Shown piece after piece: positions 20,242 to 64,000 of a DNA stretch of 64,000 nt. The stretch's first letter is position 1, and each line of letters begins with the position of its first letter. This DNA is from Patescibacteria group bacterium (GTDB lineage: Bacteria > Patescibacteriota > Patescibacteriia > JAQUQO01). The notes beneath the pieces are model-generated. The model had not been told where the DNA came from. It worked only from the letters and a program-made list of their open reading frames with translations, and did no database searches. The stretch is from NCBI GenBank assembly GCA_028716045.1, contig JAQUQO010000001.1, forward strand, positions 632,961 through 696,960. Direction: 5' to 3'. The position numbers were made by a program, and so were the translations under genes.

Positions 20242-20260
20242 ATTAAAAATTTAATTCTAG

Positions 20261-20503
<243 letters not shown>

Positions 20504-34620: not shown

Positions 34621-34697
34621 TGGTGGGCATGGATGGATTTGAACCATCGACCCCCACTTTATAAGAGTGGTGCTCTAACCAACTGAGCTACATGCCC
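34621..34697 (-). tRNA. tRNA-Ile with anticodon TAT (UAU).
   Basis: GGGCATGTAGCTCAGTTGGTTAGAGCACCACTCTTATAAAGTGGGGGTCGATGGTTCAAATCCATCCATGCCCACCA, with anticodon loop CTTATAA. Confidence 0.85.
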
Positions 34698-44513: not shown

Positions 44514-45896
44514 TTATTTTAAAAATCCAGTAATTTTATCAGATGTAAATAATATCTCGCTAAAATTAGCCAAAAAATCATTATTTTTAGTAATCTTTTC
44601 TAAATTAATATACCCCCCTTTATCTCTGATATCTAAAACTCCCAACAATTTTTCTTCGGATAACTGGCCAGCAGTTTTAGTATATTCTTTTACTAAATCC
44701 TCGGAATTGCTCAAAAATAAGAAGTTTTTTTTACCTTGGCTGATGATTTGGTAACTGATTTTTAAAGGAATGCCCTCTGACTCCAAAATACGCGGCCCCC
44801 CGGGGGTTGTTTCTGTAAAATCAGCAATAATTTCTTTGGGTAAAAATTCAATGGCCCTGCCGTCCGGTAAAACTACTTCCTTTTCTTCCGGATATAAATA
44901 ACCAACTACTCGCTTCAAAACATTGGCCAATTTGGCCGGGTCAAATTCTTTAGACGAGATATTGACGATTAGCAAAAAATTGTTCCGCAAAAAATTTTTA
45001 ATATCTACCGGATTATTTTCATCCTCAAATTCAACCAAGAGTTCTCCCTCTCCCCGTAAGATATCCCCCAACTCATCAAAATCTTTTTCACCGCTGGCTA
45101 AAATATTTTTGGGAATATATTTTTTACTTTCTCCATACAAATCAAAAAAATTAAAACCGCGCAGATAGAGCAAAGGTTTTTCGGCGAAAGAATTGATAAA
45201 CGAAGCGGCGGTCAATTTAGAATGGGGGAAATTAAAATCAACAATCAGCTGATTATTATTTCTGGCCAGGGAAATATAAATATTTTCAGGCAATTTAATG
45301 TTTGAAAACAAATATCTTTCCCAAGGTAATGGCGCCGCGTGCTTAGAGGTATCAATATGACCTCGGCCAACATCACTGCCGGGAATTTTAAAATAAAAAT
45401 ATGCCCGGGGGTTGCTGAAAATTTTCCAAAATATATCGCGGTAAAGAAGCTCCGTATTCGCAGAAGAGGCGCCAACGGCCACCGTGTCGTTGCTAAAATC
45501 TTTAATCGTTAAATTTGCCGGCCAGGTATTCGGACGAGAAAAAAATCTCGCTAAAAAAAATCTTTGGCCATCGGGTAAAACCACCCAAGCCATTTCTTCA
45601 CCGGAAAATTCCTCGGGAAAACCCCAAAAGCGATTAAGCTCGCGAACCAATTCCGCGCTAACCTTATCGTCTGAATAGTTTAGGTGAATATAAACAACCT
45701 TATCAACGGGCGCGTAATCAATTAAACGGTCTCCGGGAAAAAATATCAATATAATAGCCACAGCCAGTAAGGCTGCGGCTATTATTAAAAATAAAAATAT
45801 AAATTTATAGGATGGCCGGCGCCTTTTGGAATAACCCAAATACGCCTCTCTTCTTTGGCTAAAAGAATAGTAATCGGGCATGGCTTTATTTTTCAT
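44514..45896 (-). CDS. Hypothetical membrane-anchored protein (460 aa), translationally coupled to pnp.
   Basis: Its ATG overlaps the pnp stop (TAATG). N-terminal TM helix then a large extracytoplasmic domain. Confidence 0.7.
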   Translation of the reverse strand: MKNKAMPDYYSFSQRREAYLGYSKRRRPSYKFIFLFLIIAAALLAVAIILIFFPGDRLIDYAPVDKVVYIHLNYSDDKVSAELVRELNRFWGFPEEFSGEEMAWVVLPDGQRFFLARFFSRPNTWPANLTIKDFSNDTVAVGASSANTELLYRDIFWKIFSNPRAYFYFKIPGSDVGRGHIDTSKHAAPLPWERYLFSNIKLPENIYISLARNNNQLIVDFNFPHSKLTAASFINSFAEKPLLYLRGFNFFDLYGESKKYIPKNILASGEKDFDELGDILRGEGELLVEFEDENNPVDIKNFLRNNFLLIVNISSKEFDPAKLANVLKRVVGYLYPEEKEVVLPDGRAIEFLPKEIIADFTETTPGGPRILESEGIPLKISYQIISQGKKNFLFLSNSEDLVKEYTKTAGQLSEEKLLGVLDIRDKGGYINLEKITKNNDFLANFSEILFTSDKITGFLK

Positions 45897-50006: not shown

Positions 50007-50134
50007 CGCCTGCCTCCTTTCTTGTGATTTTAAAGACCGTTTAAAACGTTTATACCTTATCATTTTGCTTAAAAACTTTCAACTGTTTGCCTAAAAATCA
50101 AAAGTGTCGTAAAATAAAAACAGTATCTAATCGT

Positions 50135-51118
50135 ATGAAAAGAGAAACGCCAACAAAAATTAATCCTTCTTCTCCTCTCGCCAAACTCCTCGGGGAATTC
50201 TTGGACTATTTAGAGATAGAAAAAAACCGCAGCCGGATGACACGGCGCAATTATGAATTTTATCTGGGGAGATTTTTACGCTGGTTAGAATTAAAAAAGA
50301 GCCGACTGGCTCCCGAAGATATCACCGCTGAAAATGTGCGCCAATACCGCCTCTGGCTCAATCGCTTGGCCGAAGATAGCGGACAGCCGCTTAAAAAAAG
50401 CACGCAGAATTATCATCTCATCGCCCTGCGCTCATTTTTAAAATATCTCGCCAAGCGCGACATTAAAACTCTGGCGCCGGAAAAAATTGAGCTGGCTAAA
50501 ATCGGCGAGCGCACGGTGGAATTTTTAGAAGGGTCGGACTTGGAAAAATTTTTGGAAGCGCCCCTGCTCATCAAAAATCCGGACATTATTAAAAAAAGAG
50601 ACAAGGCGATTCTGGAAACGCTTTTTGCCACCGGTCTGCGCGTTTCGGAATTAAGTAATTTAAAAATTGACCAAATCAATCTAAAAAAGGACGAATTCAC
50701 GGTCCGCGGCAAGGGCGACAAACCGCGCGTGGTTTTTTTATCCAATCAAGCCAAATACTGGATTAAAGAATACCTGGACGCCCGCACTGACCCCAACCCC
50801 TTTTTGTTTATGGGACACGACCGCGCCAGCGCCAAAAGGGAAATGAAAAAAATTCCCAAACTGACCCCGCGCAGTATCCAGCGGCTCGTGGAAAAATACG
50901 CCAAAGTCGCCGGTCTCACCAAAAAAATAACTCCCCACACCTTGCGCCACAGCTACGCCACCGACCTGCTGATGAATGGCGCTGACATCCGTTCGGTACA
51001 AGCCATGCTCGGCCATGCCAGCATTACCACTACCCAGATTTACACTCACATCACCAACCAGCAACTGCGTGAAGTGCACAAAGCCTTTCACGGCCGACAA
51101 CGTCAAAAAAATAAATAA
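50135..51118 (+). CDS. Tyrosine recombinase, XerC/XerD family.
   Basis: C-terminal R...HxxR...Y catalytic pattern (LRHSYATDLL...GHASITTTQIYTH). Start chosen at the ATG at 50135; the track starts at 50087 with a non-ATG codon. Confidence 0.85.
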   Translation: MKRETPTKINPSSPLAKLLGEFLDYLEIEKNRSRMTRRNYEFYLGRFLRWLELKKSRLAPEDITAENVRQYRLWLNRLAEDSGQPLKKSTQNYHLIALRSFLKYLAKRDIKTLAPEKIELAKIGERTVEFLEGSDLEKFLEAPLLIKNPDIIKKRDKAILETLFATGLRVSELSNLKIDQINLKKDEFTVRGKGDKPRVVFLSNQAKYWIKEYLDARTDPNPFLFMGHDRASAKREMKKIPKLTPRSIQRLVEKYAKVAGLTKKITPHTLRHSYATDLLMNGADIRSVQAMLGHASITTTQIYTHITNQQLREVHKAFHGRQRQKNK

Positions 51119-51657: not shown

Positions 51658-51732
51658 GGCCCCGTAGTTCAAAGGATAGAATAGAAGCCTTCTAAGCTTT
51701 AGATCTAGGTTCGATTCCTAGCGGGGTCACCA
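51658..51732 (+). tRNA. tRNA-Arg (anticodon TCT).
   Basis: GGCCCCGTAGTTCAAAGGATAGAATAGAAGCCTTCTAAGCTTTAGATCTAGGTTCGATTCCTAGCGGGGTCACCA. Confidence 0.9.
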
Positions 51733-51750
51733 AAAAATTTAATAATCATG

Positions 51751-51824
51751 GCGGCCATAGTTTAACGGTAGAACAGCGGATTGTGGCTCCGCTGGCCTGG
51801 GTTCAACTCCCAGTGGCCGCCCCA
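51751..51824 (+). tRNA. tRNA-His (anticodon GTG) with an encoded G-1.
   Basis: G-GCGGCCATAGTTTAACGGTAGAACAGCGGATTGTGGCTCCGCTGGCCTGGGTTCAACTCCCAGTGGCCGCCCCA. Confidence 0.9.
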
Positions 51825-52899: not shown

Positions 52900-54096
52900 A
52901 TGCTAAAAAAAATAATCGTCTGCTCCTTCATATTTTTATTTTTTAACTGGCCGGGGGCTTCGGCCGCCGAGCCGCCGGTGGATATTTATTTTTTTTACGG
53001 CGACGGCTGCCCGCACTGCGCCTCGGAAAAAGAATTTTTGAATTTTGCTATTCAAAATAAGTATAAAGATAAAATCCGGGTTCACGAATTTGAGGTTTGG
53101 TATAACATTAAAAACGCCAACCTGCTCGTGGACTTAGCCAAGGCCTATAAAGTCCGCAGCGCGGGCGTGCCAATGACTTTTATCGGCGAAGAGGCTTTCT
53201 CGGGTTTTGGAAAAGGATATACTGACGTTAAAATTGAACGGACTATTCAAAATTGTTTAGATTCCGGCCAATGTCTTGACCCGATGTATAAAATAGCTCC
53301 GCCGGAACAGTCAAAACCGCCAGCCGAAGAAAAAGAACAAAAGGAAGAATTAAAATTGGATTACCCCCTTATCAGAAACATTAATCTCTTTTCCTTATCC
53401 CTGCCTGTCCTTACTATCGCTTTGGGAGCGCTGGACGGTTTTAATCCTTGCGCGATGTGGGTTCTCCTCTTTCTTATCTCTCTGCTTTTGGGAATGGAAG
53501 ACAAAAAAAGAATGTGGCTTATCGGCATCGCCTTTATCGCCGCTTCGGCCGCCACCTATTTTCTTTTCCTCGCCGCTTGGCTAAATCTCTTTATTTTCAT
53601 GGGTTATATTCAGCTGGTGAGAATCGCCATTGGCCTGCTGGCCATCATCGCGGGCATTATCAATCTTAAAGATTACTTCTCTTATCAAGAGGGCGTCTGC
53701 AAGGTGACTAAGGGGGAAAGCCGCCGGAAAATTTTTGAACGCATCCGCGAAATTATTAAATCTAAATACCTCCTTTTCTCCCTCGCGGGCATTATTGTTT
53801 TGGCTTTCGCGGTTAATATGGTGGAGTTGGTCTGCTCTATCGGACTGCCGGCTATTTACACGCAGATATTGAGTTTAAATCACCTGCCAACCTGGGAATA
53901 TTATTTTTATCTGCTCCTTTATATTTTCTTCTTCATGCTGGATGATATTATCGTTTTTGTGGTGGCGATGCTCACCCTGAAAATCGCCGGCCTTACGGGT
54001 AAGTACACCAAGTACTCCAACCTCGTCGGCGGAATTATAATCTTGATTATCGGCATCCTGCTTATCCTAAAACCGTCGCTCTTAATGTTCGGCTAA
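52900..54096 (+). CDS. Fusion of an extracytoplasmic thioredoxin-fold domain (CPHC) to a CcdA/DsbD-type transmembrane domain.
   Basis: Signal peptide, then a DsbA/Trx-like CPHC, then six TM helices with FNPCAMW and a second Cys (ELVCSIG). Confidence 0.7.
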   Translation: MLKKIIVCSFIFLFFNWPGASAAEPPVDIYFFYGDGCPHCASEKEFLNFAIQNKYKDKIRVHEFEVWYNIKNANLLVDLAKAYKVRSAGVPMTFIGEEAFSGFGKGYTDVKIERTIQNCLDSGQCLDPMYKIAPPEQSKPPAEEKEQKEELKLDYPLIRNINLFSLSLPVLTIALGALDGFNPCAMWVLLFLISLLLGMEDKKRMWLIGIAFIAASAATYFLFLAAWLNLFIFMGYIQLVRIAIGLLAIIAGIINLKDYFSYQEGVCKVTKGESRRKIFERIREIIKSKYLLFSLAGIIVLAFAVNMVELVCSIGLPAIYTQILSLNHLPTWEYYFYLLLYIFFFMLDDIIVFVVAMLTLKIAGLTGKYTKYSNLVGGIIILIIGILLILKPSLLMFG

Positions 54097-54196: not shown

Positions 54197-55819
54197 ATGC
54201 CGGAAAATGGCGAAATTAAACTAAAAAAACCGATAAAAGAACTGCTGGAAGTGTTCGCGAAAAAACCAGAAGATAATCAGGAAATTGCCAAAATCAAAGT
54301 CAGTGAAATGATCAGTAAAATCGCTTTTTTTTACGAAAAAATCCGCAACGTCATTGATTATCGCGAGGAACATCTTTTGCGCAAAGGCGCCGTGGAAAGA
54401 ATCATCCGACGTAAACTTTTGATTGAAGGACGGCTCACCATTGAACCGCAAAAAGAGGCCGACATCGCCAAGTCGTTAATCTGCGAATTGATTCGGGCTT
54501 CTTATATACCCAATGAATCATTGCCGGAAACAAAAATTGGGACGGTGGCTAAAATTTTAGTAAAGTATGACGCGCTGAAGAAAAAAATTGCCGCCACGCC
54601 CCACCGGGAGACGAAAAAAATAAACAATTGGCTCATCGGCCTCATGGCCTGCGAAATAGAAGAAGAACTGATTCCGCCGACCCGCGACCATGCTTTGGCC
54701 GAAACAATGTATAAATTAATGAACCCGCTAATTACCGTGGAAGGCCGGCCGGCGCCGGAAGAGAATGAAAAAAATACTCAAATTTATTTGGCGATTTATC
54801 GCAACCTTCTGAAATACGACCATGGTATGCTGGATTATTTGCTGTGGAATCTTTACTGGCCGGAATGGCGTCAGGGTAGCGAAGAAGCAATAACTAAGGC
54901 AGCGGATAATATAGAGTCAATAAGGCGGGCTATAGAAATCCAAAAAAATCATCCTCTGCGCGAGAAGCTCAATAAAATTTGCAAAAAATACTCGGTACTA
55001 TTTATCATCTTCAAAGACATTATTGAAGAAAATCCGGACAACATTGAAGATATTTTAGCTAATCCGGCGATGCTGGAAGAAAAAGTGACCAAAGTTTGTA
55101 ATAAAAAATATCAGGGGATAAGAACCAAACTGCGCCGCAGCGTGCTCCGTTCAATTATCTATATTTTTATCACTAAAATGGCTTTAGCGCTGGCCATTGA
55201 AGTCCCGTTTGACCTGTTTATCACCCACCAACTACATTATTTATCCTTGGGCATCAATATCCTTTTCCACCCCCTCCTTCTTCTTTTTATTGCCCTTTCT
55301 GTAAGAATTCCCACGGAAAAAAATACTAAAATAATCATCACCAGCTTAAAGCTTCTTTTTTATCAGCATGGCGAGGAAAAATTAAAATATATCGTCAAAA
55401 TGCCGGCAAAACGCGGGGGATTTCTACAAGGTATTTTTACTTTTATCTACGCCCTGACTTTTGTCATTTCTTTCGGCATTTTAGTAACTATTTTAAATAA
55501 ACTGCATTTCAGTATTTTAAGCATGCTCCTCTTTATTCTCTTCTTAAGCGTGGTTAGCTTTTTTGCCACTCGCATCCGCAAAACCGCCAAAGAACTTTTA
55601 GTCATCAAAAAAACCGAGAGCATCTTCACGGCTTTTTCGGACTTCTTCTTTACTCCGATTATCCACGCCGGGCGGTGGCTTTCAGTAAATTTCTCCAAAA
55701 TCAATGTTTTTATCTTTATTATGGATGTTATTATTGAAGCGCCGTTTAAAATTTTTATAGATATCTCCGAACAATGGTTCGCTTTTGTGAGAGAAAAAAA
55801 AGAGGAGCTGGAACCGTGA
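54197..55819 (+). CDS. Hypothetical protein (540 aa) with a soluble N-terminal half and a C-terminal multi-TM region.
   Basis: Long ORF between two strong terminators. Promoter-like extended -10 TGCTAAGAT at 54163-54171. Confidence 0.6.
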   Translation: MPENGEIKLKKPIKELLEVFAKKPEDNQEIAKIKVSEMISKIAFFYEKIRNVIDYREEHLLRKGAVERIIRRKLLIEGRLTIEPQKEADIAKSLICELIRASYIPNESLPETKIGTVAKILVKYDALKKKIAATPHRETKKINNWLIGLMACEIEEELIPPTRDHALAETMYKLMNPLITVEGRPAPEENEKNTQIYLAIYRNLLKYDHGMLDYLLWNLYWPEWRQGSEEAITKAADNIESIRRAIEIQKNHPLREKLNKICKKYSVLFIIFKDIIEENPDNIEDILANPAMLEEKVTKVCNKKYQGIRTKLRRSVLRSIIYIFITKMALALAIEVPFDLFITHQLHYLSLGINILFHPLLLLFIALSVRIPTEKNTKIIITSLKLLFYQHGEEKLKYIVKMPAKRGGFLQGIFTFIYALTFVISFGILVTILNKLHFSILSMLLFILFLSVVSFFATRIRKTAKELLVIKKTESIFTAFSDFFFTPIIHAGRWLSVNFSKINVFIFIMDVIIEAPFKIFIDISEQWFAFVREKKEELEP

Positions 55820-58807: not shown

Positions 58808-60796
58808 CTAATGGTTAAAAATATCCAAACTAACCGGGCTGGCTAAAACTTTTTCTTCGTCAATCACCTGCTTTATTGAACCCATTCTATCAAGCTCGTT
58901 GCCACCTTTAATTTGGACTAAATTTATTTCCAATTTATACTCCCCGGCCAACAAGCGATTTTTTATTTCTTCCGAGAAATTCCACCAATAGTTAGTTTTG
59001 ATAATCATATTCGCCGGCCATTCATTCGGCGGATAAAGTCCGTAGTTAAAAGGTAATAACTCGCGCTCCATAATTTGTCCTCCTTCGTCAACAACGCGAC
59101 GGCTGATAAAATACTCGTCTTTGGACTCGCGAGAATTCTCCCAAAATAAAGAAATGGGAATCAAATCGCTCGCGGCTATCTCGGATGTTTGATAGCCCAA
59201 AAAGTTAATTCCGCTTTCGGAAACGATTTTGTTGTTTTTAAAATTTTCCACTGGCAAACTATCCGGCAGTTCATAAAGTTCAACTTTTTCCGCGGTATTT
59301 TTTTGAAAAAGAACTAAATTATCAATAACTTTTACCGCGCCTAAATTATTTTTCAAAATCTCTTCTCTTAAACGATTATCTCCCGACTCATAGATATTCC
59401 AAAGATGTTTGTGCAAAAAAAAATTAAAATAAAATGACACTATTTCTCTGGAATCTAAAATCAAATACTCGGTATTCTCCGGCAAACGATATGGGGTAAA
59501 CCCGAACTGTTGCTTGCCGTAAAAAACGTAATTTAGGGCATAAAGGTCTTTTCTTAAAGAAAGGTTGGAACGCAAACTCCAAGAAGCGGCTACCGGCTCT
59601 TCCGACGGTATTTCTTTTATAACTTCTCTTGAGTTAATCCTATCTAAAGCTATTTGCTCATTGCCAAATTTAGCAAAAAATTCCGGCAACGGACCAAGAG
59701 CTAAATTTAAATATAAAATACCCGCCGCCAGAGAAACCCAAAAAACATCTGCTCTTTTTTTATAAAAATTGCCAGAAGAAATTTTATTCAGGCCAAAAAT
59801 GAAAGCCACAACAATTCCCAAAAGAAAAAACAATCCATATTGCGTACGCAAAATCGTATCACTGCCTCCGGCTTCCGCTAAAGCAATTTGTAAAAACGGG
59901 GGTAAAGCCAACAAAAGATATTTTGGTTTTAAAAATGGGATGTAAAAAAATGGCGCTAGCAGCCCAAAAATCATCAACCAATTTCCCGGGCGAACCAAAT
60001 GCGCCGCCACAGCGCCAAAATGAGGAAAAAAATTCAATATCATTTCCGGGAAAGAACTGCCCAGCCAGCCGTAAAAAGCGACAAATTTATAACTGCCGGC
60101 CGGAGAAAAATGATTGATTACTTGCAGGGAAAAAATGAACCAACCCGCGCCCAAAAGAAATGATGTTAAAACAAAACGCCAACTTTTTCTTTCCCATAAA
60201 GACAAAAATCCAAACATCAAAACTATTAAAGCCGTATCCTCGCGCACGAATAACGCCAGAAGAATAAAAACAAAATAAGGCCAAAATCTATTGCTGTAAT
60301 AAAAATAAAAAGCCCAGAGCAAAAAGAAAAGGGCCAAGGGATAAAGATGGACTTCGTATAAATTAATATTATGTAAGACCGGATTTAAAAGATAAATGGC
60401 GGCGAGGGCGAGGGGCAGCCATTTTTTATATTTTTCATCAACGAATATCTTTTGGGTAATTTTGTAAACCGGCCAAGCGCCGAGCGCCAAAAAAATCGTC
60501 TGCAAAACCAGTAAAAAAAGCGGCGACTGCCAAAAATAATACAACGGCGCTAACAATAAGATAATCGGCTCAAAATGGTCGCCCAGATAAGTCGGTGGGT
60601 GGATAGAAAGCCCGAACCAATCGCCGTGGACCGTATTGTAAAAAGTATTGTTAAAAATCGCCAAATCCAATCCGTTGTATAAAAAATTATCGTACTTCCA
60701 AAAAGAGATAAAAGAAAAAGCGACGATATAAACAATGATAAGCAGCCCCAGCAGCTTGAAATTATTTTTAATTATCCACTTTAAAATTTTTTGCAT
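58808..60796 (-). CDS. Large polytopic membrane protein. DUF2079-like; possibly GT-C-type glycosyltransferase-like.
   Basis: 662 aa with about 10 TM helices in the N-terminal 330 aa and a C-terminal soluble domain. Family assignment is from memory and is weak. Confidence 0.55.
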   Translation of the reverse strand: MQKILKWIIKNNFKLLGLLIIVYIVAFSFISFWKYDNFLYNGLDLAIFNNTFYNTVHGDWFGLSIHPPTYLGDHFEPIILLLAPLYYFWQSPLFLLVLQTIFLALGAWPVYKITQKIFVDEKYKKWLPLALAAIYLLNPVLHNINLYEVHLYPLALFFLLWAFYFYYSNRFWPYFVFILLALFVREDTALIVLMFGFLSLWERKSWRFVLTSFLLGAGWFIFSLQVINHFSPAGSYKFVAFYGWLGSSFPEMILNFFPHFGAVAAHLVRPGNWLMIFGLLAPFFYIPFLKPKYLLLALPPFLQIALAEAGGSDTILRTQYGLFFLLGIVVAFIFGLNKISSGNFYKKRADVFWVSLAAGILYLNLALGPLPEFFAKFGNEQIALDRINSREVIKEIPSEEPVAASWSLRSNLSLRKDLYALNYVFYGKQQFGFTPYRLPENTEYLILDSREIVSFYFNFFLHKHLWNIYESGDNRLREEILKNNLGAVKVIDNLVLFQKNTAEKVELYELPDSLPVENFKNNKIVSESGINFLGYQTSEIAASDLIPISLFWENSRESKDEYFISRRVVDEGGQIMERELLPFNYGLYPPNEWPANMIIKTNYWWNFSEEIKNRLLAGEYKLEINLVQIKGGNELDRMGSIKQVIDEEKVLASPVSLDIFNH

Positions 60797-60802
60797 AATT
60801 TT

Positions 60803-60835
60803 AAAAGCAGATGTTAGAAAACATCTGCTTTTTAC
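60803..60835 (-). terminator. Rho-independent terminator ending the pilin-like gene array.
   Basis: AAGCAGATGTTagaaaACATCTGCTT followed by TTTT on the minus strand. Confidence 0.65.
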
Positions 60836-60852
60836 CTAACTTATTGGAAATT

Positions 60853-61398
60853 TTAACAAGAGGATTGGTCGCCATGTTCGCATTTGCATTTATAATCCCA
60901 CGGTTCACATTGAGTTTCCCATTCTTTGATTTCGCTTTCTGATGGATTTTCCAGAGCAATATTTTTAATGACATTCTCCACGATAAAAATCCAAATGGAG
61001 ACTGACAGTAAAACTATGGCTATGCCGATGACGCCGTTAAACAATAACTTTTTAGCTTTTTCTATATTTTGCTCATTCCCGCCGGCCGTCATCCAGACAA
61101 AACCGGCGTATACAATCACTCCCAAAAACACCAGGCCTAAAAACCCGCCGGCATATCTGATAAGCGTAGCCATAAAAAGAAAAATGTTGTTAACTCTGCT
61201 GGAAGAAAAATACAATGTCTCGCCGGCCGTAGCGCCCAATTGCTTTTCTATATCTTGCTCACCGCTTTTATCTAAAAACAACGGCCGATTGATATCCGGC
61301 GTGGTTTGCAAGGCCTGCACGGTGTTGCTTACAAAAATCAAACCGAAAAATAGAATCACTGCGGAAATAAAAATTATACCTAATTGCTTCTTACTCAT
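60853..61398 (-). CDS. TrbC/VirB2-like pilin-family paralog 1 (181 aa) with an extra Cys-rich C-terminal tail.
   Basis: Signal peptide, then TM1, then VYAGFVWMTAGGNEQNIEKAKK, then TM2. C-terminus CEPWDYKCKCEHGDQSSC. Confidence 0.6.
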   Translation of the reverse strand: MSKKQLGIIFISAVILFFGLIFVSNTVQALQTTPDINRPLFLDKSGEQDIEKQLGATAGETLYFSSSRVNNIFLFMATLIRYAGGFLGLVFLGVIVYAGFVWMTAGGNEQNIEKAKKLLFNGVIGIAIVLLSVSIWIFIVENVIKNIALENPSESEIKEWETQCEPWDYKCKCEHGDQSSC

Positions 61399-61406
61399 AA
61401 TACAAA

Positions 61407-61865
61407 TTATTTGACTTTCACGCCCGCGCCTATGGTTTTTTGCGAAATCGCCTCGTATAAAATGCGGTTGATGGTGTAAGTAATACTAACCGAGAGAAAA
61501 ATAATCAAAACCGCTATCACCGCGTTGACTATCATTTTTTTAGCTTTGCCAAGCTGGTCTTCGTTGCCGCCGGCCGTCAGCCATAAATATCCGCCGTAAA
61601 TCATCAAAATAACAAAAATAAAGCCCACAAAGAGCAAAACGTATTGGATGAGGGAAACGATTACTAAGCGAATGTCTTGGCTTTCGCCCGTGGCATATTT
61701 GGCTTCTTTGCCGGCTTCACCTAATTGGTTGAGGGGGCTTAGAACAGAAGTTCCTCCTTCGCCGAACGTCGGCTCCTGAGCCAGGGAAATCTGCGGCTGA
61801 CAAAAAATAAAAAAAGCCCCGGATAAAACAGCGGCTGTGATTGTTAGAATTAAAAAATGTTTCAT
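61407..61865 (-). CDS. TrbC/VirB2-like pilin-family paralog 2 (152 aa).
   Basis: Signal peptide (…ISLAQEP), TM1, IYGGYLWLTAGGNEDQLGKAKK, TM2. Confidence 0.6.
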   Translation of the reverse strand: MKHFLILTITAAVLSGAFFIFCQPQISLAQEPTFGEGGTSVLSPLNQLGEAGKEAKYATGESQDIRLVIVSLIQYVLLFVGFIFVILMIYGGYLWLTAGGNEDQLGKAKKMIVNAVIAVLIIFLSVSITYTINRILYEAISQKTIGAGVKVK

Positions 61866-61874
61866 AATCGCTGG

Positions 61875-62273
61875 CTAAACAAAAATGGCGACAATCGTTC
61901 TGGTAATAATATAGGCAGCCATCGTAATACCCAAACCAATACTGGCGTCAATAATGATGGTTTTTGATTTGGTAATCTTTTCTTCATTGCCCCGGGCGAG
62001 CATCCAATTGACACCTCCGTAAACCACTAAAACCAAAAAAATCGTGCCTACTAGCACTAAAAGCGCGCCGATGCCCCCACCTACTCTGGCCGCGAGCGTC
62101 GTTTCTCCCACCTCTCCAAATCCGCCCGCGCCCACCCCGGCGGCGGTTTTTAATCTTTCAAAATAACTTTCTTTAAAACTTTTCGGTTCTGCGGCCAATA
62201 AAACAGCCGGAAAAAAATAAACAGCGGCTAATAAAAAATATCTTATTTCTTTGAAAAAATTAAATTTCGCCAT
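61875..62273 (-). CDS. TrbC/VirB2-like pilin-family paralog 3 (132 aa).
   Basis: Signal peptide, Gly-rich linker, VYGGVNWMLARGNEEKITKSK, TM2. Confidence 0.6.
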   Translation of the reverse strand: MAKFNFFKEIRYFLLAAVYFFPAVLLAAEPKSFKESYFERLKTAAGVGAGGFGEVGETTLAARVGGGIGALLVLVGTIFLVLVVYGGVNWMLARGNEEKITKSKTIIIDASIGLGITMAAYIITRTIVAIFV

Positions 62274-62276
62274 AAT

Positions 62277-62720
62277 TTAGGTAGAAAATAAAAACGTGGA
62301 AACTGTCCAAACGATGGCGTAAGCCAAAAATATGACAATAAGACCGGTAACGGCGTTTCTAATGATTCCCTTGGACTTGTCTATAATTTCGGATTCGCCT
62401 CTGGCCGTCATCCACTTTACTCCTCCGTAAACCATCAAGACAAGAAAAACTACGCCTATCACTGATAATAAACCGACAATCGCTCCGGCAATCTTTGATT
62501 CTAAACTATCACCCGTTCTTAACCCGGCCTTTTCAGCTGCTGAACCCAAAATATCAGTGGCATCTTTAAAATTTGTCTGCATGTCAGGGTTAGGTTCGGA
62601 TTGCCCAACATTATCATCGGCAAAAACTGCCGGTGAAGAACAAAACATTAAGCAGAAAAAAAATCCCAATAGAATAATTGTAAAAATACTTCTCGTTGTC
62701 ATAAATTTAACCGCCTCCAA
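62277..62720 (-). CDS. TrbC/VirB2-like pilin-family paralog 4 (147 aa).
   Basis: Signal peptide, VYGGVKWMTARGESEIIDKSK, TM2. Confidence 0.6.
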   Translation of the reverse strand: MEAVKFMTTRSIFTIILLGFFFCLMFCSSPAVFADDNVGQSEPNPDMQTNFKDATDILGSAAEKAGLRTGDSLESKIAGAIVGLLSVIGVVFLVLMVYGGVKWMTARGESEIIDKSKGIIRNAVTGLIVIFLAYAIVWTVSTFLFST

Positions 62721-63138
62721 AAATTAATCTATTAAGCACAAACTCCACTATAAAATAAGAAAGGGCCACGACCACAACGCCAATAATCGCATTGACGATT
62801 GTATCCTTGGATTTTTCCACTTTTTGTTCATTCCCCCTAGCAATCATCCAATTGATACCGCCATAAATCATCAATATTAAAAATATCACTCCGACAAAGG
62901 TCAAAGCTGAACCAAGTAAACTTCCTATTAATGCCGCTAAATTTGTTGAAGTTGCTAACTCTCCTTCCTCGGCTCCGGGAATACCGGCCTCTTTGGCTGT
63001 CGTACCCAATCCATAATCATCATTCTTCTCCTGCGCGGCGGAAGGCAAAACGCCAAACCACCCAAAAATCAAAAAAGCCACTAAAAAAATAATGGCTAAA
63101 GAAAAAATTGAATAAATTTTCTTATCCTTGCTTTTCAT
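62707..63138 (-). CDS. TrbC/VirB2-like pilin-family paralog 5 (143 aa).
   Basis: Signal peptide, IYGGINWMIARGNEQKVEKSK, TM2. Overlaps paralog 4 by 14 nt. Confidence 0.6.
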   Translation of the reverse strand: MKSKDKKIYSIFSLAIIFLVAFLIFGWFGVLPSAAQEKNDDYGLGTTAKEAGIPGAEEGELATSTNLAALIGSLLGSALTFVGVIFLILMIYGGINWMIARGNEQKVEKSKDTIVNAIIGVVVVALSYFIVEFVLNRLIFGGG

Positions 63139-63193
63139 TGGAAATATTCATTAGGCCCCTTGTCTTATAAAAACAAGGGGCCCGTATTAGATA

Positions 63194-63571
63194 TTAGCTG
63201 GTGGCTTCAATCAATCCCCTGATAACAAAGGTGGCGATGGAATAAGCGGCTAAAACAATGGCTAAACCAATGACACCCTGCATCAAAAGCTTCTTCGCTT
63301 CGCTGACTTTATCTTCATTGCCCGCGGCAGTCATCCATTTAAATCCGCCGACTAAAATAATCACTACTGCCAGAGTTCCGAGAAAGCCCATTATCACCTT
63401 GATAATATTGGCGATGGTCTCGCGAATATCGGTGCTGGTCAATCCGGTTTGAGTCAAATACTCCAGACCGGGGTCAATATCCGTTTGCGCCAAGACCGCT
63501 CCCGGCAAAATCACTAAGGCAAAAAGGACAAAAAATCCCATTGCCCAAGAAAAAAGCGTTTTTAACTTCAT
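63194..63571 (-). CDS. TrbC/VirB2-like pilin-family paralog 6 (125 aa).
   Basis: Signal peptide (…GAVLAQT), LVGGFKWMTAAGNEDKVSEAKK, TM2. Confidence 0.6.
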   Translation of the reverse strand: MKLKTLFSWAMGFFVLFALVILPGAVLAQTDIDPGLEYLTQTGLTSTDIRETIANIIKVIMGFLGTLAVVIILVGGFKWMTAAGNEDKVSEAKKLLMQGVIGLAIVLAAYSIATFVIRGLIEATS

Positions 63572-63611
63572 AATTGTTAATTTCCTTATTTAAAAATTAT
63601 TTAAAATCGTC

Positions 63612-63950
63612 TTATTTTTGCGTCAAAGTTGCTATAACAAAACCGACTAAGATATAACTGGCGAAAATGATAACCAGCCCGATGGCCGACCAAAGCAAAA
63701 TATCCCTGCCTTTCTTTATTTTATCAGCATTTCCGGCTGATGTCAACCAAATTAATCCTCCGTAAATGAACATTGCCAGGGCGATAGAGCCAACAATCCC
63801 CATAATCGCTTTAATAACACCGCCGATGGCTGTTTGCGGGTCACTAAATTTTAACGGATTTTTAAGTTGAATCGCGGCATAAACCGGCATAAACGACAAA
63901 AAAAATACGGTTAGGCTGATAAAAACGTTTCTTAAAACTTTCCTAAACAT
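63612..63950 (-). CDS. TrbC/VirB2-like pilin-family paralog 7 (112 aa).
   Basis: Signal peptide (…PVYAA), IYGGLIWLTSAGNADKIKKGR, TM2. Confidence 0.6.
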   Translation of the reverse strand: MFRKVLRNVFISLTVFFLSFMPVYAAIQLKNPLKFSDPQTAIGGVIKAIMGIVGSIALAMFIYGGLIWLTSAGNADKIKKGRDILLWSAIGLVIIFASYILVGFVIATLTQK

Positions 63951-63960
63951 AATTAAGAAA

Positions 63961-64000
63961 TTATTCTTCTTCCACTTGATAATTTTTAGCCCCTTCTTCC
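63961..64000 (-). CDS. 3' end of a further minus-strand CDS running off the window (C-terminus …EEGAKNYQVEEE).
   Basis: An open frame ends with TAA at 63961-63963 on the minus strand. Identity unknown. Confidence 0.3.
   Translation of the reverse strand, partial: EEGAKNYQVEEE

Follow-up and report, generated by a model that had tools for sequence, protein, structure and literature searches.

Eight consecutive genes at one end of the DNA analyzed here (the window, a stretch of 64,000 nucleotides) encode paralogs of the PF18895/VirB2-like family. In our opinion, the locus is best explained as a chromosomal pilin operon of the Patescibacteria T4SS in a relative of the Magasanik-, Falkow-, Uhr- and Buchananbacteria (class ABY1), a reading to which we assign a probability of about 0.6. 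It is a real array of a known kind and not a new kind of system. By a published definition (PMC12102498), an array comprises at least two PF18895/PF04956-positive genes in tandem or one non-pilin gene apart; here, eight genes follow one another with gaps of 3–55 nt.

Organization of the array

The seven minus-strand genes noticed in an earlier note on this DNA are confirmed as ORFs spanning 60853–63950. The further gene that was said to run off the window at 64000 is present as well, and should be corrected to an eighth paralog, P0, which crosses the window edge. The features are as follows, all on the minus strand.

63961..64000, minus strand: P0, first pilin paralog, 213 aa; last 13 codons and stop, the rest lying beyond the window (L001 9349–9990); PF18895
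63612..63950, minus strand: P1, pilin paralog, 112 aa; PF18895 44.8 bits
63718..63746, minus strand: candidate sigma-70-like promoter TTGACA-17-(TG)TAAAAT inside P1, ~150 nt upstream of the P2 start; 11/12 matches
63194..63571, minus strand: P2, pilin paralog, 125 aa; PF18895 43.6 bits, PF04956 26.3 bits
63153..63183, minus strand: GC-rich 14-bp stem-loop between P2 and P3, no U-tract; −23.2 kcal/mol, z = −4.6
62707..63138, minus strand: P3, pilin paralog, 143 aa; PF18895 44.9 bits
62277..62702, minus strand: P4, pilin paralog, 141 aa from the ATG at 62702; PF18895 40.2 bits
61875..62273, minus strand: P5, pilin paralog, 132 aa; PF18895 30.9 bits
61407..61865, minus strand: P6, pilin paralog, 152 aa; PF18895 24.8 bits (below the cut-off of 26.6), E = 2.3e-5
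60853..61398, minus strand: P7, pilin paralog, 181 aa, with a C-terminal 4-Cys tail; PF18895 27.2 bits
60803..60832, minus strand: terminator-like hairpin at the array end; 13-bp stem, −16.9 kcal/mol, z = −5.3, then UUUUAAAAUU

The small gaps between the genes stand as described, whereas the overlap reported for P4 does not, because it arose from the use of a TTG start (62277–62720, 147 aa). The ATG at 62702, located 8 nt after a GGAGG RBS, leaves a 4-nt gap; the public gene call for P4 is 123 aa long and loses the signal peptide. The hairpin at the end of the array, taken previously for a terminator, is real. A family profile search of the other ORFs of the 64 kb identified no further family members, even at E ≤ 10. 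The pilin genes form one operon-like block, which lies behind galU and the gene of an SBP_bac_1 lipoprotein.

Protein architecture and family assignment

Pairwise identity among the paralogs is 21–35%, with a mean of 29%. In each, a variable segment joins the signal peptide to a helical hairpin. Every N-terminus contains K/R, followed by ~15–20 hydrophobic residues and an AxA-type site at residues 25–35; the putative cleavage sites of seven paralogs are VYA↓A, VLA↓Q, SAA↓Q, VFA↓D, LAA↓E, SLA↓Q and VQA↓L. Hydropathy indicates two further hydrophobic segments after the leader. The signal peptide and two hydrophobic helices claimed before are present in every paralog, with cleavage predicted from the −3/−1 rule alone. 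The loop motif (I/V)YGGxxW(M/L)TAxGNExK..K is likewise seen in the alignment, although calling it near-invariant was an overstatement: M1 and three Gly are the only residues invariant across the eight paralogs.

The paralogs differ in their terminal extensions. The Cys-rich tail CEPWDYKCKCEHGDQSSC on the last paralog (P7) is confirmed, and in P0 a 12-Cys N-terminal extension, with CLCCGNCSLDDF at its end, separates the signal peptide from the hairpin core. Of the array members from this and related genomes, 27% carry at least four Cys in extensions N- or C-terminal to the core, which fits a location of both termini outside the cell. The AF2 model of P2 (pLDDT 84, core >90) contains helices 2–27, 49–81 and 86–124, of which 49–81/86–124 form the hairpin.

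PF18895 (T4SS_pilin; curated gathering cut-off 26.6 bits) matches all seven window proteins, six of them at or above the cut-off (27.2–44.9 bits) and P6 below it; the core of P6 is 28–43% identical to those of its sister paralogs. P0 likewise carries a precomputed PF18895 match, and the family was found in 147 of the 148 array members from this and related genomes. PF04956 (TrbC/VirB2; cut-off 27.9 bits) gave, in an HMM check of the seven proteins, a best score under its cut-off, for P2 only (E = 8.9e-6); at E ≤ 1e-3 it was matched by 26 of the 148 array members, and the next family by just 6. NF045849 (Mbov_0395 pilin-like; cut-off 40 bits) is the top NCBIfam match for all eight proteins, yet scores below its cut-off (15.7–36.8 bits; P0, 31.4).

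The family was also compared by hhalign with eight bona fide VirB2/TrbC proteins, whose genes all have VirB3 and a lytic-transglycosylase or T4SS gene as neighbors. The profiles aligned with 78–81% probability (E = 1.3–1.7e-5) over 62–64 columns covering both helices, the VirB2 profile being shallow (8 sequences, Neff 2.8). In the same alignment, subject to the same shallow profile, GISWMFGRAS of VirB2 is in register with GGFKWMTAAGNE, in agreement with the earlier placement of the two loops at the same position. Taken together, the PF18895 matches, the near-cut-off PF04956 match and the hhalign result support the TrbC/VirB2-type T4SS pilin locus that the earlier note had proposed. Its other suggestion, an undescribed family, fails: the proteins have a Pfam family of their own, their NCBI name is already "pilin", and such arrays have been published. 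A search of PDB chains with the family profile gave no relevant match, and fold searches do not single out VirB2; the helical hairpin resembles hundreds of unrelated proteins.

Three other assignments were rejected. Type IV (T4P) pilins are contradicted by the absence of an N_methyl motif (PF07963), by the Sec-type leaders with AxA sites and by the two further helices. Weak DctQ/TctB matches in 6 of the 148 members, which would point to TRAP/TctB small subunits, look like hydrophobic noise, and the context gives no support to a bacteriocin or a holin.

A candidate major subunit

P2 is the most conserved and the most VirB2-like paralog, with a median ortholog identity of 55% versus ~40% for the others. 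The stem-loop behind it is conserved as a structure: 87% of the sequences 3′ of P2 orthologs reach −15 kcal/mol or lower, compared with 16% of the equally long spacers before P2 (p = 1e-12). It makes transcription of the array as a single unit, assumed previously, doubtful, since it separates P2 from P3. Because it lacks a U-tract, termination at this site is not established; we regard it as a candidate attenuator or 3′ mRNA stabilizer that may set subunit stoichiometry.

Its conservation, the long spacers on both sides and the strong 3′ hairpin make P2 the candidate major subunit, and the hairpin would give P2 excess expression. In the publications consulted on Patescibacteria pilin arrays, we found no earlier description of such a hairpin as a candidate mark of the major subunit. 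It should be noted that promoter-like sites in the region do not in total exceed shuffled controls. Promoter motifs are significantly enriched upstream of P2 orthologs, but this enrichment is confounded by the base composition of the AT-rich intergenic sequence and is, for this reason, not relied on.

Relationship to T4SS machinery

VirB4, VirB6 and VirD4 genes are absent from the window, as had been stated. The expectation that the rest of a T4SS would lie just beyond 64 kb was not borne out: the next 10 kb hold genes of P0, the SBP lipoprotein, galU, RRM, HD, GNAT and Wzy_C, with no T4SS assembly gene. Neighbor clustering and Pfam searches revealed no VirB4, VirB6 or VirD4 within 10 kb of 83 related arrays, and phmmer with the VirB4 of Pontibacillus found no VirB4 near them. 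An 850-aa neighbor considered as a VirB4 candidate proved to be a class A PBP. Neither here nor at the 83 related loci are the pilin genes embedded in a T4SS operon of VirB1-VirB2-VirB3-VirB4 or equivalent order.

Distance alone, however, is weak evidence against a functional link, because 813 of 1948 pilin-bearing Patescibacteria assemblies have a pilin gene far from virB4 (near virB4 in 1135 of 1948); VirB4 itself is present in 2417 of 3035 assemblies (~80%). The supplement of the published survey does not include the present assembly, GCA_028716045.1. Taking VirB2/TrbC as a model, and given that the Southlakia array is reported to be essential, we propose that the pilins pass through Sec, lose their leader and wait in the membrane as hairpins whose two termini face outward. 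From there, a VirB4-type machine, presumably encoded at another site of the genome, would pull them out and build a pilus-like fiber or channel extension where the host cell is contacted. P2 would be the major subunit of this structure and the other paralogs minor or variant subunits, displaying their variable N-terminal segments and Cys-rich extensions on the surface.

The paralogs might instead belong to the T4SS without being pilus subunits, staying in the cytoplasmic membrane within the translocation channel or its assembly platform. This may be so in monoderm conjugation systems, whose pilin-like proteins are not known to form pili; Gram-positive T4SSs are generally reported without a pilus, and according to reviews none has been seen in any Patescibacterium. 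A tblastn search against plasmids gave two weak matches only, one of which led to a Pontibacillus plasmid with homologous tandem pilin-like genes in a Firmicute cluster with TraL/VirB3-like, TrsD-like, VirB4 (CD1110 family) and peptidoglycan hydrolase genes, a cluster that also speaks for the T4SS link of the main reading. Yet 8–15 divergent paralogs with variable, often Cys-rich extracellular extensions are hard to reconcile with a buried part, and in class ABY1 the array is detached from virB4. We therefore consider a role confined to the membrane rather unlikely.

Conserved neighborhood

The neighbors of the locus are, overall, galU, the SBP lipoprotein, DUF2079, PGI and GPDH. In 54 of 69 related loci, an SBP_bac_1 (sugar-binding) lipoprotein gene, preceded by galU, lies directly upstream of the first pilin gene; the reverse test of this pairing succeeded in 3 of 3 cases, and a lipobox is present in the SBP protein. 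We found no earlier description of this linkage in the publications consulted on these arrays. In terms of a T4SS pilin operon, P0 and the SBP lipoprotein would be a conserved pair that might serve as a base, a tip or a receptor module.

The same linkage would fit a second alternative, namely that in ABY1 the family has lost its tie to the T4SS and acts together with the SBP lipoprotein and envelope-glycan genes in a surface or uptake structure of its own kind. It is consistent with the lack of T4SS genes within 10 kb of any of the 83 related arrays, with the recurrence of glycan-related neighbors (galU, GT2, DUF2079, Wzy_C) and with the finding of no ABC permease among the annotated recurrent neighbors of these arrays. 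The prevalence of VirB4 in Patescibacteria assemblies and the many assemblies in which pilin genes lie far from virB4 weigh against it, as does the fact that no other machinery is known to assemble VirB2-like hairpins. We regard such an uncoupling as improbable. One could go further and picture the ABY1 array as a stand-alone, origin-independent operon, with the SBP lipoprotein and the Cys-motif P0 as its conserved core, a major subunit expressed on its own and a tail that evolves quickly. An SBP docking on or feeding from the fiber would make it a nutrient or glycan conduit to the host and not a DNA or effector exporter, and it might assemble without a canonical T4SS; this, too, seems to us a long shot.

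Ancient head and fast-evolving tail

In 35 of 37 loci with a P0 ortholog, that gene opens the array, and P1 orthologs occupy position 2 or 3 in 40 of 48. The tail paralogs P4–P7, by comparison, have reciprocal best hits in only 4–22 of the 83 loci, P5 in 4. The head of the array (P0, P1 and P2) is thus ancient and fixed in position across genera, whereas the tail turns over quickly, a division of which we found no earlier description in the publications consulted on these arrays. The turnover, together with the match between the variable segments and those predicted to be exposed, would suit a cassette serving mainly variation, in which the paralogs are alternative major subunits used singly to match host strains or evade recognition, as raised in the literature for Bartonella/Anaplasma VirB2; the fixed head, the lack of any noticed invertible promoter or recombination repeats and the reported essentiality of the Southlakia pilin series, which argues against redundancy, make this very unlikely.

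The Patescibacteria T4SS is essential in the one species tested; it has no relaxase, and neither a substrate nor a pilus is known. The present locus adds nothing categorical to this picture. Its ABY1-type organization nevertheless gives testable handles: a candidate major subunit (P2), the split between ancient and fast-evolving subunits and, as a conserved partner, an SBP lipoprotein suggestive of a role in recognizing or taking up carbohydrates.

Comparison with known systems

Arrays of 2–11 such pilin genes have been published for Patescibacteria (Wang 2023; Quinonero-Coronel 2025). The closest systems are the T4SS cluster SEML1_0006-0019 of Southlakia epibionticum ML1, whose pilin array is reported to be essential, the "Sec-secreted array" of TM7x and the 441 Patescibacteria arrays of Quinonero-Coronel et al. 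2025. The present array shares with them PF18895/PF04956, tandem divergent paralogs (29% identity here versus a published mean of 25%), a chromosomal location and a monoderm episymbiont lineage. Unlike them, this array and the 83 related ABY1 arrays lie neither inside nor beside a virB4 cluster; the array here stands behind galU and the SBP lipoprotein gene, and related arrays reach 13–15 genes.

The VirB2/TrbC pilins of diderm MPF_T systems (the Agrobacterium T-pilus, RP4) have in common with these proteins a leader, a two-helix hairpin, a short loop and a W-M motif at the end of helix 1, in register at an hhalign probability of ~80% with the shallow VirB2 profile. In the proteins described here, the loop and the beginning of helix 2 are together ~7 residues longer (the GNExKVxKAKK segment) and the leader is shorter; their genes have no VirB1, VirB3 or VirB4 next to them, their PF04956 scores are below the cut-off, and the host is monoderm.

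The Mbov_0395 family (NF045849), found in Mycoplasma ICEs and Firmicute plasmids, resembles the present one in sequence (phmmer E down to 3e-13 between the Pontibacillus protein and CPR array members), in its two tandem copies in Pontibacillus and in its monoderm context. Its genes, however, sit within a VirB4/TrsD/VirB3 cluster, and the proteins of our array fall short of its cut-off. The multiplied virB2 genes of Bartonella/Anaplasma are also pilin genes amplified in tandem and diverged; these are diderm pathogens of eukaryotes with a canonical MPF_T, in which antigenic variation is the proposed role of the paralogs, whereas the head of the array here is anciently fixed.

In the fimbrial operons pap and fim, a stem-loop directly follows the major subunit gene, and the minor subunit genes lie downstream. 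Although their protein family and assembly pathway are unrelated, and the function of the hairpin here is only one that we infer, the present locus has a similar layout, with a stem-loop directly after the candidate major subunit gene and the other subunit genes downstream.

Array genes and surroundings

The ORF list places seven consecutive paralogous genes at 60853-63950 on the minus strand, as the earlier note had described, and yields no further family members among the remaining ORFs of the 64-kb window. The flank past position 64000 was read from the public MAG GCA_028711565.1 (contig JAQTRY010000002.1), which is identical to the window's last 10 kb. Runs SRR22315506 and SRR22315508 from the source samples also contain the locus. 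In this contig, the gene seen to run off the window edge proves to be an eighth paralog (P0, 213 aa), in which a signal peptide and a 12-cysteine N-terminal extension precede the core common to the other paralogs. All eight proteins align as a leader, a variable Gly/Ala/Thr/Glu-rich segment, and an ~80-residue core of two hydrophobic helices linked via ..YGGxxWMTAxGNExK..K.., which bears out the architecture originally read from the sequence. Their pairwise identity is 21–35% over the full length (mean 29%) and 23–44% in the core. Every leader has K/R among residues 1–10; it also shows a hydrophobic h-region and, at residues 25–35, a site of the AxA type. The tight spacing of the genes also stands, but the overlap reported with it does not: the fourth gene (P4) most likely starts, judging by the GGAGG that precedes it, at the ATG at 62702, giving 141 aa, and with this start the apparent overlap with the neighbour vanishes. 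The public gene call for this paralog (window 62277-62720) is 123 aa long and begins within the signal peptide.

Elsewhere the window carries ordinary chromosomal genes (ValRS, ArgRS, TyrRS, PNPase, UvrD, GroEL, NusA, pyruvate kinase, iPGM, ComM, a tyrosine recombinase, and eight tRNAs). VirB4, VirB6, and VirD4 are absent from the 64 kb, as had been stated. The suggestion that the rest of a type IV secretion system (T4SS) lies just past this point fails, since the next 10 kb on the array's 5′ side instead hold P0, a 467-aa SBP_bac_1-family lipoprotein (hereafter SBP), GalU (TIGR01099, over cut-off), RRM, HD, and GNAT proteins, and two Wzy_C proteins. On the 3′ side lie a DUF2079 membrane protein, PGI, and GPDH.

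Features of the window and its flank
7072-9346 of L001 (this locus with its flank): galU and the SBP gene, just past window position 64000, with a 2-nt gap to the first pilin gene
58808-60796, minus strand: DUF2079 polytopic membrane protein, starting 6 nt past the array's terminator hairpin
54197-55819, plus strand: ORF of 540 aa, no Pfam match
52900-54096, plus strand: ORF of 398 aa, no Pfam match
50087-51118, plus strand: tyrosine recombinase (Phage_integrase family), ~0.5 kb upstream of tRNA-Arg and tRNA-His (51658-51824)
44514-45896, minus strand: ORF of 460 aa, no Pfam match
20260-20424 and 34621-34697: two adjacent tRNA-Val(TAC) genes, and tRNA-Ile (anticodon TAT)

The recombinase could be XerC/D or the remnant of an integrated element. 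Of the two tRNA-Val(TAC) genes, one is only 70 nt long and has a low score (35.8 bits). A DUF2079 gene also lies 3′ of the arrays in 9–10 related loci, and its product weakly matches a family involved in cell-surface glycopolymer formation.

Family assignment

PF18895 (T4SS_pilin) is the best Pfam match of all seven proteins. Six reach or exceed the curated cut-off, and the 152-aa paralog falls just under it (24.8 vs. 26.6 bits). The profile first proposed for the family, PF04956 (TrbC/VirB2), comes near its cut-off in the 125-aa paralog (P2) without reaching it (26.3 vs. 27.9 bits). Of 148 array members in this genome and its relatives, 147 match PF18895 and 26 also match PF04956, while the next family is matched by just 6. 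The best NCBIfam match throughout, always under cut-off, is NF045849 (Mbov_0395 pilin-like conjugal transfer protein).

The second line of evidence is a comparison with VirB2/TrbC proper. The reference profile was built from eight bona fide proteins of conjugative MPF_T plasmids, each encoded 3′ of a lytic-transglycosylase or T4SS gene and immediately 5′ of virB3. Against it, hhalign aligns the family over both helices with 78–81% probability (E about 1.5e-5). The VirB2 segment GISWMFGRAS pairs with GGFKWMTAAGNE, the position at which the earlier note had put it; relative to VirB2, the Patescibacteria proteins carry a 7-residue insertion in this alignment. With an alignment of 95 sequences as input, AlphaFold2 predicts a helical leader and, after it, a long hairpin of helices (mean pLDDT 84, core >90). 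A profile search of PDB sequences with the family gave no match. Thus, the PF18895 matches and the hhalign result support the reading of a TrbC/VirB2-type pilin locus, and membership in the VirB2-like pilin family is, in our opinion, highly probable.

Conserved organization in related loci

A scan with one genome per species gave 80 related loci, typically with 5–15 pilin genes. Informatively named hosts are Magasanik-, Falkow-, Uhr-, and Buchananbacteria; Magasanik- and Falkowbacteria are placed in class ABY1 in the table of the published pilin-array paper. Neighbour clustering, Pfam, and phmmer with a Pontibacillus VirB4 detected no VirB4 within 10 kb of these arrays.

The order of the array is fixed at its head and variable in its tail. 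P0 heads the array in 35 of 37 loci; P1 takes second or third place, with P2 next, while P4–P7 have reciprocal best matches in 4–22 of 83 loci only, at variable positions. P0 orthologs carry a CxxCG(D/N)(C/Y)(T/S)L(D/E)DF motif immediately ahead of helix 1. At least four cysteines occur in the N- or C-terminal extensions of 27% of array members; a topology with both termini outside the cell fits these extensions.

The head is joined by SBP: among the 69 loci with enough upstream sequence, 54 have an SBP ortholog immediately 5′ of the first pilin gene, usually with a gap of at most 10 nt or a 4-nt overlap; galU precedes the SBP gene in 45 loci. SBP belongs to the carbohydrate-binding branch of its family, keeps its lipobox (..SGLG|CK), and is more conserved than the pilins (54–76% identity among its top 120 homologs). 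Conversely, all three homologs picked on SBP similarity alone precede pilin genes (9, 8, and 1). The annotated recurrent neighbours include no ABC permease. In one genome group, SBP and a single P0-type gene stand ~4.5 kb apart from the main array; hence, the SBP–P0 pair is the conserved core.

P2 is set apart in both sequence and spacing. The median identity of its orthologs is 55% vs. about 40% for the remaining paralogs, and its flanking spacers have medians of 87 and 95 nt vs. 5 nt at other pilin–pilin junctions. Downstream of P2 lies the following feature.

63153-63183, minus strand: GC-rich hairpin 3′ of P2 (14-bp stem, −23.2 kcal/mol, z = −4.6)

The hairpin is kept across related genomes as a structure and not as a sequence: the median for the best 46-nt hairpin is −22.8 kcal/mol after P2 vs. 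−8.6 in spacers of equal length on its other side, before P2 (Mann-Whitney p = 1e-12). No U-tract follows it, and in the window the spacer after it is too short for a promoter ahead of the next gene; therefore, a full terminator is less likely than an attenuator or 3′ stabiliser. Within P1, a near-consensus promoter match is a lead only.

Several observations concern subsets of relatives. In 14 loci (e.g., L004 2339-4748, L005 2077-4486, and L021 1946-4358), two type IV pilin-like genes with an N_methyl motif, one of ~598 aa with CarboxypepD_reg domains and one of ~204 aa, lie directly 5′ of galU–SBP–pilin, accompanied by an unannotated gene for a ~450-aa protein; all three are absent at this genome's locus. 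In some relatives the pilin hairpin domain occurs inside very large proteins of up to 3380 aa (L012 9890-20032, L074 9983-12649, L070 2482-4551), and L019, L017, and L059 hold many hairpin-domain genes of 300–600 aa; these are raw ORFs, to which frameshifts or assembly errors may contribute, and their products are possibly pilin-anchored surface proteins. In one group (L055 799-3508) the array lies ~6–8 kb from dnaA and dnaN, which recalls published reports of T4SS genes close to the origin. The Patescibacteria-type operon also occurs in many MAGs whose titles read “uncultured Gammaproteobacteria bacterium” (L007, L008, L010, and others); the titles thus look like placeholder mislabels.

Proposed mechanism

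In the best-supported mechanism, to which as a whole we give a probability of about 0.6, the hairpin pilins would be exported by Sec, lose the leader, and be held in the membrane until a VirB4-type T4SS encoded elsewhere assembles them into a fibre or channel extension reaching the host cell; P2 would be the major subunit, and the remaining paralogs minor or variant subunits. We infer every step beyond that of a hairpin membrane protein of the VirB2 family. The nearest rival shares the predicted membrane hairpin and stops there: the pilins would remain in the membrane as part of a channel, and no pilus would form; a buried channel part would hardly account for so many divergent paralogs with variable, often Cys-rich extensions. 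Another rival, a T4SS-independent structure tied to SBP and the envelope-glycan genes, accords with the operon context and with the lack of a nearby VirB4; the similarity to VirB2 favours assembly by a T4SS. A pure variation cassette would suit the inconstant P4–P7 and is hard to reconcile with the fixed P0–P2.

Comparison with known systems

The locus is of an already published kind, as the following show: 441 pilin arrays of 2–11 genes each, with a mean identity of 25%, have been described (Quinonero-Coronel 2025); an array within the T4SS cluster of Southlakia epibionticum is essential by Tn-seq; and the 125-aa protein already bears the NCBI name “pilin”. Together with the Pfam family, these rule out the undescribed family that the earlier note had offered as an option. 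Of the VirB4-containing Patescibacteria assemblies, 1948 are known to encode PF18895/PF04956 pilins, and 1135 of these have the pilin genes near virB4. The remaining interest, in our opinion, is the ABY1-specific organization: the SBP partner, the marked P2, and the fixed head with its variable tail were not found in the consulted publications on Patescibacteria pilin arrays.

A weak tblastn match led to a plasmid of the Firmicute Pontibacillus sp. (NZ_CP062975.1; L087 11749-21302), on which two tandem pilin-like homologs (phmmer E down to 3e-13 against the Patescibacteria proteins) lie directly upstream of T4SS genes. The pair is followed, in order, by a 779-aa membrane protein, a TraL/VirB3-like protein, a TrsD-like protein, a VirB4 ATPase (CD1110 family), and a peptidoglycan hydrolase. 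To our knowledge, Gram-positive T4SSs are commonly said to lack VirB2 homologs, a claim with which this pilin-like pair fits poorly.
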